DNA from: Promethearchaeota archaeon
GTDB taxonomy: Archaea; Asgardarchaeota; Lokiarchaeia; Sigyniarchaeales; SOKP01
Length of the DNA stretch: 44,293 bases
Direction of reading: 5' to 3'
Assembly: GCA_048941285.1 (NCBI GenBank)
Contig: JBHLNS010000028.1
Span: forward strand, 1-44,293
Position 1 is the stretch's first letter, and each line of letters opens with the position of its first letter. This document shows, one piece after another, positions 636-7,137 of the stretch. The notes below the pieces were generated by a model that ran no database searches, had not been told where the DNA came from, and saw only the letters and a program-made list of their open reading frames with translations. The translations under genes and the position numbers were made by a program.

Positions 636-1202
636 TTAATTTTGTTTAAGACTAATCCGTTCTCCTAATTTATAGTAATTGAAATCTCCTCCTGTAGTCC
701 AAATAATCGGGTGGATTTTTCTCCAGTCAAGTTTCACATTCCCTTCTTCTTCGAAGGTGTATTGTTGATTTACATAAGACTTAACTACTTTGCCAATAAT
801 TCCTTCACCATCACCATAGTTGAGGATTTCATGTACTTTGCATTCTATATTAACTGGACATTCACGGATCATTGGAGCTGTTTTTAATTCTCCATAAAAA
901 TTATCAAAGAGAGAACTTTTATCAATATCACGTCCAGATTTGCTCCCACATATACTTGTTTTTTCCACGAGATCTTCCGATGGAATATTTACACTAAAAG
1001 TCATATTCTCATGAATTCCGATTGCAGTATAGCGTTTTGGATATAAACTGAAGAAAATATATTTACCAAAATCAAATGGGCAACTATATCCGATTACCAA
1101 ATAATTTGGTTTGTCATTGACATTTGCACCAACCAAAATCACTGGTAATGGACTGAGTAGATTTCTTTCAGTTACTTGCTTATTTAAATTTTTTTCTTTC
1201 AT
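636..1202 (-). CDS. Flavin reductase-like FMN-binding protein (flavoredoxin, DIM6/NTAB family)
   Basis: PLPVILVGA, FSVNIP, CGSKSGRDIDK, APMIRECPVNIECKV. Confidence 0.85.
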   Translation of the reverse strand: MKEKNLNKQVTERNLLSPLPVILVGANVNDKPNYLVIGYSCPFDFGKYIFFSLYPKRYTAIGIHENMTFSVNIPSEDLVEKTSICGSKSGRDIDKSSLFDNFYGELKTAPMIRECPVNIECKVHEILNYGDGEGIIGKVVKSYVNQQYTFEEEGNVKLDWRKIHPIIWTTGGDFNYYKLGERISLKQN

Positions 1203-1214
1203 TTTTTTTAGCCT

Positions 1215-1826
1215 TTATGGTTTTTTTACAATATAATCAATAACACAGGTCCGCCCCGTATTAAAATAATTTCCTTTTAAAATTTGTCTTTTTTCTTTAT
1301 AAATTATCTCGAAATCCTTAAAATATTTATCAGGTTCATTATCATCATAAAAACTATGAAGAAATTTGTCATTACTCCCTATAGTTACAACTTCCCCCGG
1401 ATTTTGTTCTATTCCATTACCATAATGAGTATCGTCCTTTGAAAGGAAGTTTACATAACAAAGTCCTCCTTTTTTCAGCACTCTATACATTTCTTTGATG
1501 GCAGTACCTGTATCAATCTTATTTAAGTGAAATATAGAATTATAGGAAAATACAAAACTAAAAAAATTAGAGTCAAATGGTATTTTTCTCATATCTGCTT
1601 TAATGATTTTTAGGTTGATTCCATTTTCTTCACAATATTCATTAGAATAGTTAATTGAATCCTCCGAAATATCAATCCCATAAGCTTCAAAACCATTTTC
1701 TTGAAAAAATGCCAGCTTAGGGTTTGGACCTCCCGCTCCACAATCTAAAATATTTTTCTCTAAAGGAATTGAATTCGTAAACCTAAGGAAATTATACAAT
1801 GAAGATGGATAAAAATTTTGGATCAT
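1215..1826 (-). CDS. Class I SAM-dependent methyltransferase
   Basis: ILDCGAGG motif I, GIDIS, ADMRKIPF, EMYRVLKKGG. Confidence 0.85.
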   Translation of the reverse strand: MIQNFYPSSLYNFLRFTNSIPLEKNILDCGAGGPNPKLAFFQENGFEAYGIDISEDSINYSNEYCEENGINLKIIKADMRKIPFDSNFFSFVFSYNSIFHLNKIDTGTAIKEMYRVLKKGGLCYVNFLSKDDTHYGNGIEQNPGEVVTIGSNDKFLHSFYDDNEPDKYFKDFEIIYKEKRQILKGNYFNTGRTCVIDYIVKKP

Positions 1827-1869
1827 TTTCCATATCTACCTCAAATCTGTTAGGTATTTAATCGTTCTT

Positions 1870-2451
1870 TTATAATTTTTTATACTTCTTACCAATCTCA
1901 AATGCTGGTGCCAATTTTTCCCCAATTTTCCAATAATTATTTATAGAATATGCATAAGTTTTTAATTTGGCAATATCAGGTATTCCTTCTGTTAAATAAT
2001 CCTCATCTGCATAAACATTTACTATCTTTCCAATGAAAATTTCATGACCTTTCTCAATCTCTACTAAATCCTTGATTTTAAAGGATTTGATAACCTCACA
2101 TTCAAGATTTAAAGGTGAAAGACTTGCCATTGGAGCAGTTTTGAGATCCCCATAAAAAACATCAAAGACTTCTGATTTATCTGTTTCTTTTCCAGATACT
2201 ATACCACAATAATCAACCTTTTCTGCTAAATCTTCAGTAGGTGTATTGACACTGAATGTTCGATTTTCATTAATACCAATGTTAGTATAATGAGTCACCC
2301 AAGAAGCTATTGAAATCATTGGAGGATCAGCTTCTACAATACCAACGTATGCAAGTGTCTCAAAATTTGGCTTTCCATTTACGTTCGCCCCTATAAGAGC
2401 AACTGGCATAGGAAATAAATAAGCCCTTGGAGTTATTTTACTTTTTTTCAC
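1870..2451 (-). CDS. Flavin reductase-like FMN-binding protein (flavoredoxin), paralogue of 636..1202
   Basis: PMPVALIGA, FSVNTP, CGIVSGKETDK, PLNLECEV, HEIFIGKI; GTG start. Confidence 0.85.
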   Translation of the reverse strand: MKKSKITPRAYLFPMPVALIGANVNGKPNFETLAYVGIVEADPPMISIASWVTHYTNIGINENRTFSVNTPTEDLAEKVDYCGIVSGKETDKSEVFDVFYGDLKTAPMASLSPLNLECEVIKSFKIKDLVEIEKGHEIFIGKIVNVYADEDYLTEGIPDIAKLKTYAYSINNYWKIGEKLAPAFEIGKKYKKL

Positions 2452-2632: not shown

Positions 2633-2995
2633 TTAACCACAACAATTGGTATTTGAACTAGTTCCACTGGCAGGTGCACAACCACAACTATTATCAGTTA
2701 CTTCTCCTTTTTTTGCGTTTTTAGCAACACCTCTTGCATTCCATAAACAGCCACATCCTTTTCGTTCATTCAGGATAATTGCTTGAGTGGGACAATTTCT
2801 TTTACAGGCACTGCATTCTGTACATAAGTCCGGTCTTGGAATTTCATATTTACCAGAACTATTATCTTGTGGAAGACCAAATGGGCATACTTCAGCACAA
2901 AGACCACATCCATTACACACATCTTTATCAATGAAGATTAAAACATCTTTAATAAATTCAGTAAAATCAAATGATTCAAGATTAGTTTCTGTCAT
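2633..2995 (-). CDS. hgcB: HgcB-like 2x[4Fe-4S] ferredoxin with Cys-rich tail
   Basis: CNGCGLCAEVCP and CTECSACKRNCP (HgcB-type CxECxAC), then GCGC, CGC and terminal CCG. Lies directly downstream of the hgcA-like gene, with a GGAGG SD. Confidence 0.75.
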   Translation of the reverse strand: MTETNLESFDFTEFIKDVLIFIDKDVCNGCGLCAEVCPFGLPQDNSSGKYEIPRPDLCTECSACKRNCPTQAIILNERKGCGCLWNARGVAKNAKKGEVTDNSCGCAPASGTSSNTNCCG

Positions 2996-3040
2996 TTTCC
3001 TTACCTCCTATTTTTATACATCTTTTATTTTTTATTAAAT

Positions 3041-4702
3041 TTATGTAGAAAATATAAATCCTAAAATTAGAAGTACTATATTTAGGATAATTAAAATCTT
3101 ATTTGTTAAATTAAAAATGGGATATTCTTCTTGGATTTCTCTAGGACTTGTAGCCATTGAGTATCCACTAAATGACATCGTTGAAAAGAATGTAATCCAA
3201 AAATAAAAACCAAGTTGCCATAGAATATAATAGATATTATAATGGATTAAAAAAGATAACCCTCCCAAGAGAACCATATTAATAATACCAAAAAAGATAC
3301 CTTTAAAAATAAATCTCCTTGTGAATTTTGAAATTGGGAACAATATTGCTATAATTAAATTTGCTATAATTATCCAGAGCGATAATTCACCAATCCACCA
3401 TAATTTATTGAACCAAGTTAGAATTGAAAACAGTAATACTAAAGCAATTAAAGGCAAGATGAAAATTTTTCGGAATAAAAATGAGAGATGAGTTACTCCA
3501 GCACGAATTCTATGGTATAGTGTAAATTTAGCTAGTTTCATTCGATCAGGTTTTTTAGCAGGATTTTCATCAAGAAATTGAGGTATTTGTTTTGACCAGA
3601 TTGGTCCATATCTAATTCTAAAGGGAAATTCTTCTGAATTCTTAGGAAGTTGAGGTATAGCGACACCTCCGGCTGAAAGTTGTGGAAGTAGTAAGGTTTT
3701 CTTTTTAGTGATATTTCTTATATCTGTTGCATCTATTACCTCAAGAAGTTGTTTATTTCCAAAATCATTGCCACGAGCAGCACACCATACATTTATGCCG
3801 TTTGAATCAACACATAATACCCAAGCATCACGTCCTTTAAGGTCACGCATTACCTTAATATATGTAAATTCATAATTAGCAGTGACAATTATAGGTGATT
3901 TTTCATCAGGATTTCCAGATTTATAAATACCAGGTTCTATTGGTACACGATCAACTTGTCCTGTGAATATACAACGATAAATTCTCAACTGAGATCGAAA
4001 TCCCTTAAATCTTTTTATTCCGGGTCGATAATATCCCGGCTCATTAGTTCCATTATCAGTAACTTTTTGTAATTCTATTGCTTGGATTGAACCGTGTTTC
4101 CATTTTGCCAGTGTATTGATTTTATAACCTATTGGCTCTAGATATTTAAAAAACCATTTAATTAGATACGTACTTTGTATTCGTAAGCGCCTTAATTTTT
4201 TCTTATATCGCCATCTTTTTAGTTTAAATATTAGCTTCCAAAAGCCAGTAGGTACGAATTCAGCAGCTAAAATTAAACGTCCATTTGGTTTCAACATTTT
4301 CCATACTTTCCTAAGAAAAAGTTGTTGTTCTAAAGGACGAAGTTCAGATAACATAAATTTACTAACTATTAAATCTTGAGAACGAGTTGGTATAGTCAAA
4401 TCTGTAAATGAACCCGTTTGGTATAATAACTTTCCTCCAGATAAATCAGATGGAAAGTTTTTCATAGCATAATTAATCATTTGAAAGTTTTGATCAATCG
4501 CAATTACATTATTTCCTTTTTGAGCCATTTTTGAAGCGAGCGTTCCTGTACCGCATCCAATTTCTAAAATTGACTCGGAATTATTAATTTGATTTAAAAT
4601 CCAGTTTTGTACTTCAATATTTACTCCTTTTGTAAGAGCTGTAAACTTAGAATCGTAAGATTCTGGTTCTTCTTCTAATTTTCGCATATAGACGACAGCC
4701 AT
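3041..4702 (-). CDS. hgcA: Fusion of a class I SAM methyltransferase, an HgcA-like corrinoid-binding (CdhD-like) domain and a transmembrane domain
   Basis: N-terminal ILEIGCGTG / VIAID / KMLKPNGRL. Middle EPGIY..GNPD..SPIIVTANY, GINVWCAARGNDFG (Cys TGT at 3782-3784), LLLPQLSAGG, YGPI. C-terminal 4-5 hydrophobic helices with FSGYSMATS (HgcA has FTGxxxxTS). Confidence 0.8.
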   Translation of the reverse strand: MAVVYMRKLEEEPESYDSKFTALTKGVNIEVQNWILNQINNSESILEIGCGTGTLASKMAQKGNNVIAIDQNFQMINYAMKNFPSDLSGGKLLYQTGSFTDLTIPTRSQDLIVSKFMLSELRPLEQQLFLRKVWKMLKPNGRLILAAEFVPTGFWKLIFKLKRWRYKKKLRRLRIQSTYLIKWFFKYLEPIGYKINTLAKWKHGSIQAIELQKVTDNGTNEPGYYRPGIKRFKGFRSQLRIYRCIFTGQVDRVPIEPGIYKSGNPDEKSPIIVTANYEFTYIKVMRDLKGRDAWVLCVDSNGINVWCAARGNDFGNKQLLEVIDATDIRNITKKKTLLLPQLSAGGVAIPQLPKNSEEFPFRIRYGPIWSKQIPQFLDENPAKKPDRMKLAKFTLYHRIRAGVTHLSFLFRKIFILPLIALVLLFSILTWFNKLWWIGELSLWIIIANLIIAILFPISKFTRRFIFKGIFFGIINMVLLGGLSFLIHYNIYYILWQLGFYFWITFFSTMSFSGYSMATSPREIQEEYPIFNLTNKILIILNIVLLILGFIFST

Positions 4703-4769
4703 AAGTAACCAAACTGTTTTTTATAATTTTATTTTGATTTTAAAGCTCTTGAAATATTTATAGAATGTA

Positions 4770-4793
4770 TCATATAAAAATATTTCGATGTGA
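4770..4793. promoter_or_regulatory. Imperfect 12+12 palindrome, putative ArsR operator
   Basis: TCATATAAAAAT/ATTTCGATGTGA (9/12 symmetric) in the hgcA-like/arsR divergent spacer. A second TATGAA-N15-TTCATA lies at 4809-4835. Confidence 0.45.
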
Positions 4794-4877
4794 ATCTAGC
4801 GTAATAAATATGAATAAAATTTTTATAATTTCATACGTTCTATAATAATAAGAATAAAAAAATAGAATCATATTTCA

Positions 4878-5270
4878 ATGAAAGTTGATCGAAAGGAAAA
4901 AATTAAAGATACATTATGTGGATGTGAAGATTGTTCTGATAGCAATAAATATTTTGAAAATCTACAGCAAATTGGAAAAGAATTGAAATTTGATCAAAAT
5001 TTAAATTCATTGTTTGCATTTTTTAATGCTTTAGGAAACAAAGAACGTTTGACCATACTAACAGCATTGAACAACAAAGAACGCTGTGTTTGTGAATTAG
5101 AGGCGATTTTAGATAAATCTCAACCCTCAATTTCTCACCACCTACGAGAGTTGGAAAAAGTAGGTCTTATTCGTGGATGGAAAAAAGGTAAATACACATA
5201 TTATACATTAATAAAAGAAGAATTTAAGAACCTTATAGCAAGCCTAAATCAAGAGTTTAGTTTTGAATAA
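4878..5270 (+). CDS. arsR: ArsR/SmtB-family metalloregulatory repressor
   Basis: FNALGNKERLTIL, ERCVCELE (CVC alpha3 site), SQPSISHHLRELEKVGLI HTH; N-terminal CGCEDC. Confidence 0.85.
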   Translation: MKVDRKEKIKDTLCGCEDCSDSNKYFENLQQIGKELKFDQNLNSLFAFFNALGNKERLTILTALNNKERCVCELEAILDKSQPSISHHLRELEKVGLIRGWKKGKYTYYTLIKEEFKNLIASLNQEFSFE

Positions 5271-5321: not shown

Positions 5322-5990
5322 TTAAATAGATTCTGAATGCTTCTTTAACATATCGGCATCAGTTTTACCCATTCTTACTGCTAATTCTGCTATAATTGAA
5401 TCGAGATATACAAATGCCGCAATTTCAAATTGTGTTCCCTCAGTTGTGAGTACCGCTTGATCATCCTGAGGATCAGGTCTATCCCGTTTTGTTCGACCCT
5501 TCAATTTAATAGTAATGTCAGCAATCCTCCCAATAATTGATTCTGTATGAGAAGTTATTGATACTATAGCAAATGGTTTTACATTATTAACATAATTCTC
5601 CAATAATGATACTACTATCTTGGTAGTTCCAGATCCTGAAAGCACAATCAAAATATCCTCTTTAGAGACTGCGGGTATTGAAGCTAAATTGGTTACCATA
5701 TACACGTCCACTCCAAGATGGACTAGTCTAGTTGCAAAACATTGTAATATAAATGCACTTCTTCCAGAAGCTAATAAAAAGAATTTTCGCTTATTTATTA
5801 TTCCATCATAAACTAACTCAATGAATTTTTGAGTAAATTTGAAATATTTATCTTTCTTGAGATGTTCGACGTTTTCATCTAAATTTTTCATAAGTATATT
5901 CATTGCACGGAAAAGAATTTCTTTAGCTCGACCATTTACTTCAATCTGGTTTTCTCCCATATTAGTTTTCTCAACCATTATTATTTTCAA
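5322..5990 (-). CDS. hxlB: SIS-domain sugar isomerase, 6-phospho-3-hexuloisomerase-like (true start probably 5978 or 5960)
   Basis: ASGRSAF, FATRLVHLG, VLSGSGTT, GTQFE. Confidence 0.75.
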   Translation of the reverse strand: MKIIMVEKTNMGENQIEVNGRAKEILFRAMNILMKNLDENVEHLKKDKYFKFTQKFIELVYDGIINKRKFFLLASGRSAFILQCFATRLVHLGVDVYMVTNLASIPAVSKEDILIVLSGSGTTKIVVSLLENYVNNVKPFAIVSITSHTESIIGRIADITIKLKGRTKRDRPDPQDDQAVLTTEGTQFEIAAFVYLDSIIAELAVRMGKTDADMLKKHSESI

Positions 5991-6258: not shown

Positions 6259-7137
6259 TTAAGCTAAAAGGGCTCCAATTGCCCCACAGTATTCAGAATT
6301 TTTTAAGAAAATTGCTTTTATATTATTCACTCGACATATTAATGAGATAATATTCTTTAAAATCCTATTTTCTATTAAAAAACCTCCGCAAAAGATAATA
6401 TCTCTTACATCATTGTAAACAGCGATGTTAGTAGCAATAGTGCCTACATTTTCACCAATCATACAAATTATAGAATTGATAAAATCTTCTTTGTTTAAAG
6501 AATTAACATTAAAATCCTCATCAATCTTGCCTAATGAAGCTGCCGTATATTCTCTAAAAAGTAAATCAATTCTGTTATCTTCAGGTGAATAAATATCTGA
6601 GACTTTTAGATCGACAACATAACGATTTCCTTTTTTTGCTACACTTATTGCTTCTTGAAAATCATTCAAATCATATAATAATTTTATAATCCCCATAAAA
6701 AAACCACCTCCAAGAGCTGAACCACCCAAATGCTTAAAATTTCTATCCATTAAGATAATCGAAGTCCCTGTGCCAATGGTTACCATTAATGATCGTGAAA
6801 GTTCTTCATTTTTCTCCAAATTATGAAGAAAATTGATTCCTCTAACACTAGCTTCAAATTCGTTTATTAGATTAGATTTAAAATTCCTGGAATATTCTTT
6901 ATATAAATCAAAGCTCTTTCCCCCTGTGAAACTGAAAGTATTAAATTTTCCTTTTTTAGTTTTCAAAAATTGTTTGATTTCCAAAACAGATTTTTGTGTA
7001 GGAAAGGAAGCTAAAATTAAGTTACTCCCATCTAGATGAGCAAATTTAGAAAGAGTCTGTCCCATATCTATTCCTACTGTATTAAAGGGGATTTTCGAAA
7101 TATTATCGCCAAGATTAATTTTTATCATTTTATACAT
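6259..7137 (-). CDS. coaW: Type II pantothenate kinase (Fumble/CoaW family)
   Basis: GIDMGQTLSK, NEFEA..RG, IGTGTSI, HLGGSALGGG, GN..VDLKVSDIY, ASLGK, GAIGAL. Confidence 0.85.
   Translation of the reverse strand: MYKMIKINLGDNISKIPFNTVGIDMGQTLSKFAHLDGSNLILASFPTQKSVLEIKQFLKTKKGKFNTFSFTGGKSFDLYKEYSRNFKSNLINEFEASVRGINFLHNLEKNEELSRSLMVTIGTGTSIILMDRNFKHLGGSALGGGFFMGIIKLLYDLNDFQEAISVAKKGNRYVVDLKVSDIYSPEDNRIDLLFREYTAASLGKIDEDFNVNSLNKEDFINSIICMIGENVGTIATNIAVYNDVRDIIFCGGFLIENRILKNIISLICRVNNIKAIFLKNSEYCGAIGALLA

Follow-up and report, generated by a model that had tools for sequence, protein, structure and literature searches.

A CpaM-type SAM methyltransferase fused to an HgcA-like corrinoid membrane protein in Asgard archaea: a probable paralogue of the mercury methylase HgcAB

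Purified HgcAB, the mercury methylase, has been reported to take its methyl group from S-adenosylmethionine (SAM), which acts as a stoichiometric donor, and to pass it on via a methyl-Co(III) state with cysteine ligation of the cobalt. A second described form, the "fused HgcAB" found in Pyrococcus furiosus and Methanococcoides methylutens (HgcAB-like family NF043039), is accompanied by the methyltransferase CpaM (NF043040). Both the native function of the HgcAB superfamily and the delivery of methyl groups from SAM to the cobamide are open questions, on which the gene architecture of the lineage studied here bears. We analyzed a window of 44,293 nucleotides (contig JBHLNS010000028.1, positions 1 to 44,293) from a Promethearchaeota archaeon of the Lokiarchaeia, whose minus strand carries, at 3041..4702, an open reading frame (ORF) of 553 amino acids (aa) that joins a CpaM-type SAM methyltransferase domain, an HgcA-like corrinoid domain and a membrane domain. 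It is followed, 45 nucleotides downstream on the same strand, by the ORF of an HgcB-like ferredoxin (2633..2995, 120 aa) and faces, across a 175-nucleotide spacer, the divergent ORF of an ArsR/SmtB regulator (4878..5270, plus strand, 130 aa). An earlier reading of this DNA, hereafter the original prediction, had proposed a self-contained metal(loid)-methylation system and had noted that SAM is reported as the methyl donor of HgcAB in vitro and that hgcAB often lies near arsR-like genes; use of SAM by HgcAB and ArsR-like control of hgcAB are both in print. The best explanation that we find for the locus is a paralogue of HgcAB that carries its own SAM-binding methyltransferase.

The three-module fusion put forward in the original prediction was recovered by Pfam and NCBIfam matches, by an AlphaFold2 model and by Foldseek. 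Reading along the minus strand, the class I SAM methyltransferase domain spans aa 1–215 (4058..4702) and is assigned as CpaM-like from its NF043040 match, its conservation, Foldseek and its tree. A linker (aa 216–239; 3986..4057), modeled with no regular secondary structure before a helix at 235–246, leads into the corrinoid-binding domain (aa 240–394; 3521..3985), which is homologous to HgcA and to the C-terminal domain of the large subunit of the corrinoid iron-sulfur protein (CFeSP). The membrane domain follows (aa 395–553; 3044..3520), and the stop codon occupies 3041–3043. Pfam places class I methyltransferase families at aa 34–167, the best being Methyltransf_25 (aa 45–141, 57.9 bits), and PF03599/CdhD at aa 240–344 (56.2 bits). 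The AlphaFold2 model, built from 66 full-length homologues, has a mean predicted local distance difference test (pLDDT) of 91.7 and a predicted template modeling score (pTM) of 0.88, and shows an N-terminal domain of Rossmann type, another alpha/beta domain and, at the C terminus, five long helices (395–427, 431–458, 464–487, 490–514 and 520–552), a region in which Kyte-Doolittle analysis gives four hydrophobic segments. Its best Foldseek match is 9a0b_A, a deposited computational model of HgcAB (E 9e-13, 341 columns); ordinary class I SAM methyltransferases come next. A sequence search of the PDB matched CFeSP (corrinoid domain against 2h9a_A, E 3.2e-7) and generic methyltransferases only, and no HgcA chain.

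The residues expected to carry the chemistry are conserved in both the methyltransferase and the corrinoid domain. The cap helix GINVWCAARG lies at aa 302–311 (3770..3799, minus strand), with GINVWCAA falling at aa 302–309 exactly as claimed. Across 66 full-length fusions, down to 29% identity, G302, N304, V305, C307 and A309 are invariant; Cys307, the presumed cobalt ligand, is thus present in 66/66, and R310 in 59/66. The glycines of the SAM-loop GxGxG motif (G49, G51 and G53) and E120 are likewise invariant, and D70 is kept in 62 of the 66. The joint conservation of G49, G51, G53, E120, Cys307 and D70 points to purifying selection on the chemistry itself.

A chimeric join of two genes, an assembly artifact or a pseudogene could in principle give rise to such an ORF, and the original prediction had named a chimeric join as a concern; the chance that any of these explains the fusion is negligible. 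A search of 5.8 billion proteins returned 498 matches at E ≤ 0.001, the best 120 of which are 494–578 aa long, align with at least 89% query coverage and 65–100% identity, contain both domain types in every case and lie on many separate contigs. Full-length matches, spanning residues 1–551, persist at 31–36% identity in distant families, the domain junction (nucleotides 3982–4057) is bridged without gaps by contigs from three sequencing runs in three studies, and the arrangement between the domains is modeled at high confidence (pTM 0.88). These homologues and junction-spanning contigs contradict an artifact or pseudogene; no RNA data set was listed as a carrier of the sequence, which counts neither for nor against its expression. 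Among the matches listed, those named by their source are Asgard metagenome-assembled genomes labeled Prometh-, Loki-, Hermod-, Hod-, Odin- or Heimdallarchaeota. Matches at E ≤ 1e-20 are present in 203 of the 400 species-level genomes sampled from the phylum, and in 107 of the 134 from the window's family; counted by hand, about 144 of the 400 reach a best E-value no higher than 1e-57, where full fusions, or contig-cut pieces of them, fall. A homologue whose source names Candidatus Prometheoarchaeum syntrophicum (P0186; 545 aa, 53% identity over 526 aa) has the same methyltransferase–HgcA-like architecture, with the cap helix NVWCGARG and an intact GxGxG motif. Its source annotation reads "Acetyl-CoA decarbonylase/synthase complex subunit gamma," which looks wrong given this architecture. 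Selenocysteine, considered for distant matches flagged with one TGA codon, was rejected, the ORF calls placing these TGAs at terminal stops or at the boundary between cpaM and the hgcAB-like gene. A word-index search for stand-alone relatives of the methyltransferase domain yielded 41 matches, nearly all of them contig-truncated pieces of fusions, and is uninformative on CpaM.

The relation of the fusion to HgcA was assessed by family models, cap-helix motifs and phylogeny. The published high-stringency criterion for hgcA is N[V/I]WC[A/S][A/G/S]GK, and the six cap-helix motifs given with it all end in GK. The fusion, with NVWCAARG, falls outside this pattern; the conserved cap-helix cysteine (Cys93 of strain ND132) is present as Cys307, and the five-helix C-terminal membrane domain by which HgcA is also recognized is found in the model, with 9a0b_A as its best Foldseek match. 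The fusion scores 174.7 bits on HgcA (NF040863, aa 254–547; equivalog cut-off 275), 172.5 on the HgcAB-like fusion family (NF043039, cut-off 285), which includes the ferredoxin encoded separately in the window, and 141.1 on CpaM (NF043040, cut-off 180), the last an end-to-end match of aa 3–212 to profile positions 2–215/216. Other Asgard fusions pass the CpaM cut-off (P0269 with 211.5 bits, P0317 with 192.2). The corrinoid-plus-membrane half gave 948 matches at E ≤ 0.001 among 1.84 billion cluster representatives; we classified the best 150 by cap helix and architecture, 97 of which passed a coverage filter. Unfused proteins with the cap helix NVWCAAGK account for 76 of the 97, and three of these, when scanned, reached 392.6–429.2 bits on the HgcA model. 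An N-terminal methyltransferase is present in 13 (the fusion of the window included), none of which has GK, close relatives reading NVWCAARG. Ferredoxin-fused proteins score 368.6–419.1 bits on the HgcAB-like model and 152.8–172.3 on HgcA, which is the range of the window's fusion.

In a tree of the corrinoid-plus-membrane region (97 rows, IQ-TREE with LG+C20, SH-like approximate likelihood ratio support, rooted on the genome's own CdhE), five lineages emerge from an unresolved base. Three consist of methyltransferase fusions and comprise 2 rows (support 100), 9 rows (95) and 23 rows (95), the largest containing the fusion of the window; the fourth is canonical GK-type HgcA (26 rows, support 92), and the fifth unites the HgcAB-like fusions with a triple fusion (36 rows, support 99). 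A previous tree, differently sampled, gave a GK clade (80 rows, support 89) that excludes every fusion. The corrinoid domain thus groups with the HgcA superfamily and apart from the genome's CdhE, the outcome that would favor the original prediction over a CFeSP origin. The name given to P0186 in nr, the PF03599 match and a score of 68.2 bits on NF003195 might nevertheless suggest that the fusion is the gamma subunit of the acetyl-CoA decarbonylase/synthase (ACDS) complex, that is, the CFeSP large subunit of the Wood-Ljungdahl pathway. That score lies far under the cut-off of 306 and comes from aa 239–381 alone, aligned to positions 308–447 of 450, so the Fe-S and barrel parts of CFeSP are absent; moreover, the genome encodes a separate full-length PF03599 protein of CdhE type on contig C14 (323.5 bits), which forms a long outgroup branch in the trees. 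The ACDS gamma identity is contradicted by these two observations, and we regard it as highly improbable. Since this CdhE-type protein and the fusion are the only two PF03599 matches, the genome (94% estimated completeness) appears to lack a canonical hgcA. The fusion thus lies outside canonical HgcA and is no CdhE/AcsC. Membership of the HgcA and HgcB families, on which the original prediction is not supported as worded, has to be given up: all curated scores fall under the cut-offs, GK is missing and the lineage stands apart from canonical HgcA.

A closer relationship is found with CpaM. The original prediction had suggested that the N terminus of the fusion (VYMRKLEEEPESYD, aa 4–17) resembles stand-alone methyltransferases encoded beside HgcAB-like proteins, and this was borne out by the CpaM match and by gene neighborhoods. 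An alignment of HgcAB-like fusions led to 80 named loci, spread over many phyla of bacteria and archaea. In 76 of them, the gene directly upstream on the same strand is a CpaM-type ORF of about 220 aa that ends at or overlaps the start of the HgcAB-like gene; in two of the 76 it is incomplete (L093, cut by a contig edge, and L108, short). The four loci without CpaM comprise two contig edges (L061, L080) and two Asgard loci (L096, L109). In 48 Asgard loci the CpaM-type domain is fused to the HgcA part, and one protein of 591 aa (P0374) is a natural triple fusion of CpaM, HgcA-like and ferredoxin parts that exceeds both the CpaM and the HgcAB-like cut-off (265.8 and 381.1 bits). Three boundary states therefore exist: CpaM / HgcA-HgcB, CpaM-HgcA / HgcB and CpaM-HgcA-HgcB. 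The methyltransferase domains, placed in a tree of their own, fall into the clades already seen with the corrinoid domains; stand-alone CpaM and the triple fusion form a clade (support 99) that does not contain the fusion of the window and has one Asgard fusion clade as its sister (support 98). Fused domains and stand-alone CpaM are placed apart from four other methyltransferases of the genome, with very long outgroup branches and an unsupported basal split. Taken together, the two modules have remained partners and evolved jointly through shifts of their gene boundaries. The split form, a cpaM gene with an hgcAB-like gene, also occurs in two Asgard genomes (L130, L135), and one genome of the window's family (G261) holds both architectures, the split pair L135 and a methyltransferase–HgcA fusion at C11:427465-429120. 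The window system is thus the Asgard form of a CpaM/HgcAB-like module that is widespread and already known to databases, with the ferredoxin split off. It is no isolated case, with matches in 203 of the 400 genomes of the phylum, and because the module is already widespread and represented in databases, the novelty is smaller than was implied. In the literature, Lin 2023 places Asgard sequences in the fused-HgcAB subtree after removal of the first 327 alignment columns, and the word "methyltransferase" is absent from Podar 2015, which described fused HgcAB. Our literature searches found no paper in which HgcA is described with a methyltransferase domain. Among the papers listed by a search for CpaM, none had the phrase "corrinoid protein-associated methyltransferase," which is likely absent from print.

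The CpaM relationship also bears on what the methyltransferase domain acts upon. Source annotations call the protein UbiE/UbiG-like, Foldseek matches include a phosphatidylethanolamine N-methyltransferase (PEMT; 8ys9_B, TMt 0.77) and UbiG, and a PEMT-family membrane methyltransferase is a neighbor in 6 loci, so one could picture an enzyme that methylates a quinone, a lipid or another small molecule of the membrane and for which the corrinoid membrane protein is no more than an anchor. The similarity, however, is of a generic class I kind (12–25% identity, scores far under family cut-offs), the domain resembles CpaM in particular and has evolved in step with the corrinoid domain, and stand-alone CpaM, at about 220 aa, has the size of a soluble protein and adjoins HgcAB-like genes in 76 of 80 loci. 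We therefore rate a quinone or lipid substrate as very unlikely.

The second gene of the operon strengthens the resemblance to HgcAB. In HgcB, a strictly conserved Cys73, about 12 residues past the second cluster motif, is described as essential, and Cys94/95 at the C terminus as jointly needed. The ferredoxin of the window matches dicluster ferredoxin families in Pfam and scores 51.8 bits on HgcB (NF040864, cut-off 99). As the original prediction had noticed, it has the HgcB layout: two CxxCxxCxxxCP motifs (C27-C37-P38 and C58-C68-P69), a cysteine farther along and a C-terminal CC. In 27 aligned sequences, the eight cluster cysteines as well as G80, C81 and C83 (G80-C81-G-C83) are invariant, and the terminal CC, C118-C119 in the window, is present in 21. 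Of the 48 Asgard fusion loci, 45 have a dicluster ferredoxin gene on the strand of the fusion, at most about 200 nucleotides downstream; the other three are cut by contig ends. All 44 partners with two motifs have a cysteine 9–18 residues past the last cluster cysteine, and 36 of the 44 have a CC among their final 10 residues. By their positions, the mid cysteine and the C-terminal pair of the Asgard ferredoxin correspond to the published Cys73 and Cys94/95. Fused HgcAB-like proteins (loci L041–L120) have neither the mid cysteine (0/78) nor the terminal CC (0/78), and 70 of the 78 have no cysteine in the tail at all; 71 of 80 show just a single canonical CxxCxxCxxx(x)C motif, their first cluster motif reading like CxGxGxCxxVCP with one cysteine apparently missing. 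In its metal-handling parts, the Asgard form is thus more HgcAB-like than the fused form, and the loss of the HgcB thiols is a possible reason for the negative mercury methylation assays of fused HgcAB discussed below.

Structure prediction supports binding of the ferredoxin to the fusion. The predicted complex has an ipSAE interface score of 0.77, against 0.00 for the best control; 58 of 80 solved complexes scored that high, as did 2 of 110 mismatched pairs, a calibration that holds only roughly because the prediction used our own alignments. The runs share at least 78% of contacts, with a partner pLDDT of at least 67. Ferredoxin residues 35–40, 56–69 and 78–91 are predicted to face the cap helix (306–312), an invariant loop (341–351) and the region of transmembrane helices TM4 and TM5 (509–531), the last contact resembling the published HgcAB model.

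A reductant that docks on the cobamide would also fit two other chemistries. A small redox protein, a SAM-binding module and a corrinoid domain make up the triad of methionine synthase (MetH) reactivation, and SAM and the ferredoxin might accordingly serve only to re-methylate cobalt that has been oxidized by accident, the routine donor and acceptor reactions being handled by proteins encoded elsewhere. Reductive activation of oxidized cobalt in B12 methyltransferases is indeed discussed in the paper on SAM and HgcAB. That same paper, however, reports SAM as a stoichiometric donor, no gene for a methyl-donor or methyl-acceptor methyltransferase recurs beside the module in about 100 loci, and a repair function would leave the conserved extra cysteines of the ferredoxin without a role, so we hold such a repair system to be improbable. 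Alternatively, the cobamide could act as a Co(I) nucleophile, for example in the reductive dehalogenation of halomethanes, with the methyltransferase domain as an auxiliary. A 2026 preprint reports that heterologous HgcAB dechlorinates CCl4 and proposes halomethanes as ancestral substrates, and electrons could come from the ferredoxin and from the flavin reductases encoded nearby in close relatives. Dehalogenation would nevertheless leave unexplained both the obligate pairing or fusion with a SAM methyltransferase whose SAM motifs are invariant and the HgcB-type thiols, and the preprint concerns canonical HgcAB, a different lineage; this alternative, too, seems to us to have little chance of being correct.

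The identification of the divergent regulator as ArsR in the original prediction holds, with HTH_5 (PF01022) at 59.7 bits (cut-off 22) and NF033788 at 78.6 bits (cut-off 55). The protein has an N-terminal CGCEDC motif and a CVC pair within the segment matching HTH_5. The CVC pair is kept in 14 of 14 full-length ArsR homologues, and close relatives add an N-terminal LCGC(D/E)DC cluster. By analogy with ArsR and CadC, these cysteines may be read as a thiolate-rich metal site; a preprint discusses the same analogy for ArsR2 of ND132. The ArsR-like regulator upstream of hgcAB is reported in the same preprint to respond to arsenic as well as to S-adenosylhomocysteine, and because it responds to both, the effector of the window's ArsR could be of either the metal or the S-adenosylhomocysteine type. 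ArsR-family matches occur in the flanks of 19 of the 48 fusion loci (flanks of 1.5 kb for 30 loci and of 7 kb for 18), 16 of them divergent and 3, from a distant lineage, directly upstream on the same strand. The intergenic region between the fusion and arsR (4703..4877), about 70% A+T, would hold the candidate promoters and operator. Its core, at approximately 4745–4835, is nearly invariant in five orthologous loci and contains an imperfect palindrome, GAAATATTTATA/TAAAAATATTTC (4751–4762/4775–4786), with arms 12 nucleotides apart. Differences in the arms among relatives are not compensatory, and we treat the palindrome as a lead only, for a candidate operator or promoter.

How might these parts work together? 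We lean, with modest confidence, toward a route in which SAM methylates the cobamide by way of the fused domain, the ferredoxin reduces the cobalt, and the methyl group passes to a thiol-bound soft metal(loid). In this scheme, the HgcB-like ferredoxin, docked on the cap-helix face, would bring the cobamide, ligated by Cys307, to the Co(I) state; SAM bound by the fused CpaM domain would give its methyl to Co(I), yielding methyl-Co(III); and the methyl group would then move to a thiophilic metal(loid) held at the membrane surface by GC81xC83 and the C-terminal CC of the ferredoxin. The ArsR-type regulator, through its thiolate-rich site, would induce the operon when the substrate or some related signal is present. 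Computation gives the architecture and its conservation, the co-evolution of the modules, the intact SAM and cysteine-ligand motifs and the predicted ferredoxin interface; what we infer is that the fused domain transfers the methyl group from SAM to cobalt, in which direction methyl groups flow, and that the acceptor is a metal(loid), with Hg(II) as one candidate substrate. Of the metal(loid)-methylation system in the original prediction, the architecture with its own SAM module accordingly stands, and the methylation itself belongs to the inferred part. Several observations weigh against this scheme or against the kinship with HgcAB on which it builds. Every curated NCBIfam score, for HgcA, HgcAB-like, CpaM and HgcB alike, is below its cut-off; the NVWCAARG cap helix lacks the GK of all confirmed methylators; and the deep branching of the five lineages is weak, with the CpaM-linked forms on one side at a support of 69. 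Beyond the core genes, nothing recurs widely in about 100 loci, and no conserved neighbor indicates a substrate. ArsR-family regulators are reported that can sense S-adenosylhomocysteine rather than metals. Because canonical HgcAB is reported to need no additional methyltransferase when it uses SAM, the fused domain may have a different task. Finally, two cultured organisms with CpaM and fused HgcAB are reported to have made no methylmercury when tested. A stronger proposal would be that Asgard archaea carry a complete, self-sufficient organometal(loid) methylase, with a SAM module, a Cys-ligated cobamide and an HgcB-type thiol relay, that standard hgcA surveys have missed and that may methylate Hg(II) or a different soft metal(loid). 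Such surveys would miss the fusion because its RG cap helix fails the high-stringency filter and its N terminus is trimmed from alignments; as a whole, we find this proposal doubtful.

The remaining genes around the operon are less conserved. Downstream of the ferredoxin, co-directional genes (636..2451, minus strand), kept only in close relatives (L013–L016), are possible accessory genes: a flavin reductase-like gene (1870–2451), a second class I methyltransferase gene (1215–1826) and another flavin reductase-like gene (636–1202). Both flavin reductase-like genes belong to PF01613 and lie on the strand of the operon; they may supply electrons to the system, and it is uncertain whether they and the second methyltransferase are members of the operon. 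Flavin reductase matches above 100 bits occur in 5 of the 48 Asgard fusion loci, and a close homologue (201.5 bits; L096:5078-5647) is found just downstream of a Thorarchaeota HgcAB-like gene that has no upstream CpaM. Beyond arsR, two minus-strand genes are unrelated neighbors, one for a SIS-domain protein resembling 6-phospho-3-hexuloisomerase (5322–5990; 115.3 bits, cut-off 160) and one for a type II pantothenate kinase-like protein (6259–7137; 190.2 bits, cut-off 234). Sporadic neighbors in the roughly 100 loci are histidine kinases (7), TetR regulators (7), PEMT-family methyltransferases (6), POR_N/PFOR_II proteins of the pyruvate:ferredoxin oxidoreductase type (6) and FMN reductases (4). 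Of these, the TetR regulators, which stand directly upstream, and the PEMT-family membrane methyltransferases are found beside cpaM/hgcAB-like pairs (L067:4657-5226, L117:4729-5325 and similar).

Asgard archaea are abundant in anoxic marine sediments. By hand count, roughly a third of the sampled Asgard species carry the fusion, as does a cultured strain named by its source. A SAM methyltransferase that is obligately paired with or fused to an HgcA-like protein, in three arrangements, writes the link to SAM into the gene architecture, and the Asgard arrangement also keeps the HgcB cysteines needed for mercury methylation. Should the system prove to be a self-sufficient methylase, the fused CpaM would show how SAM reaches cobalt across the HgcA superfamily, and the loss of HgcB thiols would explain why no mercury methylation was seen with fused HgcAB. 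If it is active on mercury or arsenic, gene-based estimates of sediment methylators are incomplete.

Set against known systems, the closest is the pair of CpaM and the HgcAB-like protein. It has the same three modules as the window, a cap-helix cysteine without GK and co-evolving modules, and it differs in that the window has CpaM fused to the HgcA part and the ferredoxin separate, that the corrinoid domains fall into separate clades, and that window-type ferredoxins have the extra HgcB cysteines (44/44 and 36/44) which fused proteins lack (0/78). HgcA and HgcB (NF040863/NF040864) share with the window system a corrinoid domain with a cap-helix cysteine, a five-helix membrane domain, a dicluster ferredoxin with a cysteine about 12 residues past the second motif and a C-terminal cysteine pair, an ArsR-family gene nearby and SAM as the likely methyl source. 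Unlike them, the fusion has an extra N-terminal SAM methyltransferase domain and NVWCAARG in place of NVWCAAGK, scores well under the equivalog cut-offs and falls outside the canonical clade. The CFeSP large subunit (AcsC/CdhE) has a homologous B12-binding domain and methyl-Co(III) chemistry with reductive activation, whereas the fusion is membrane anchored, has neither the N-terminal Fe-S domain nor the barrel, coexists with the genome's own CdhE and uses as its methyltransferase a Rossmann-fold SAM enzyme, not a folate-binding barrel. SAM also methylates reduced cobalamin, with electrons from a small redox protein or cluster, when methionine synthase is reactivated and in TsrM and other cobalamin-dependent radical SAM enzymes; the SAM-binding folds of these two are not known to be related to class I Rossmann methyltransferases. 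ArsM, finally, shares the class I SAM methyltransferase fold and ArsR-type regulation, and holds arsenite on conserved cysteines. The fusion reaches only 28.4–41.9 bits on the ArsM families (cut-offs 263–575), and since its methyltransferase domain has no conserved cysteine across the 66 fusions except C50, in the SAM loop, it looks unlike an ArsM-type enzyme that methylates the metalloid directly.

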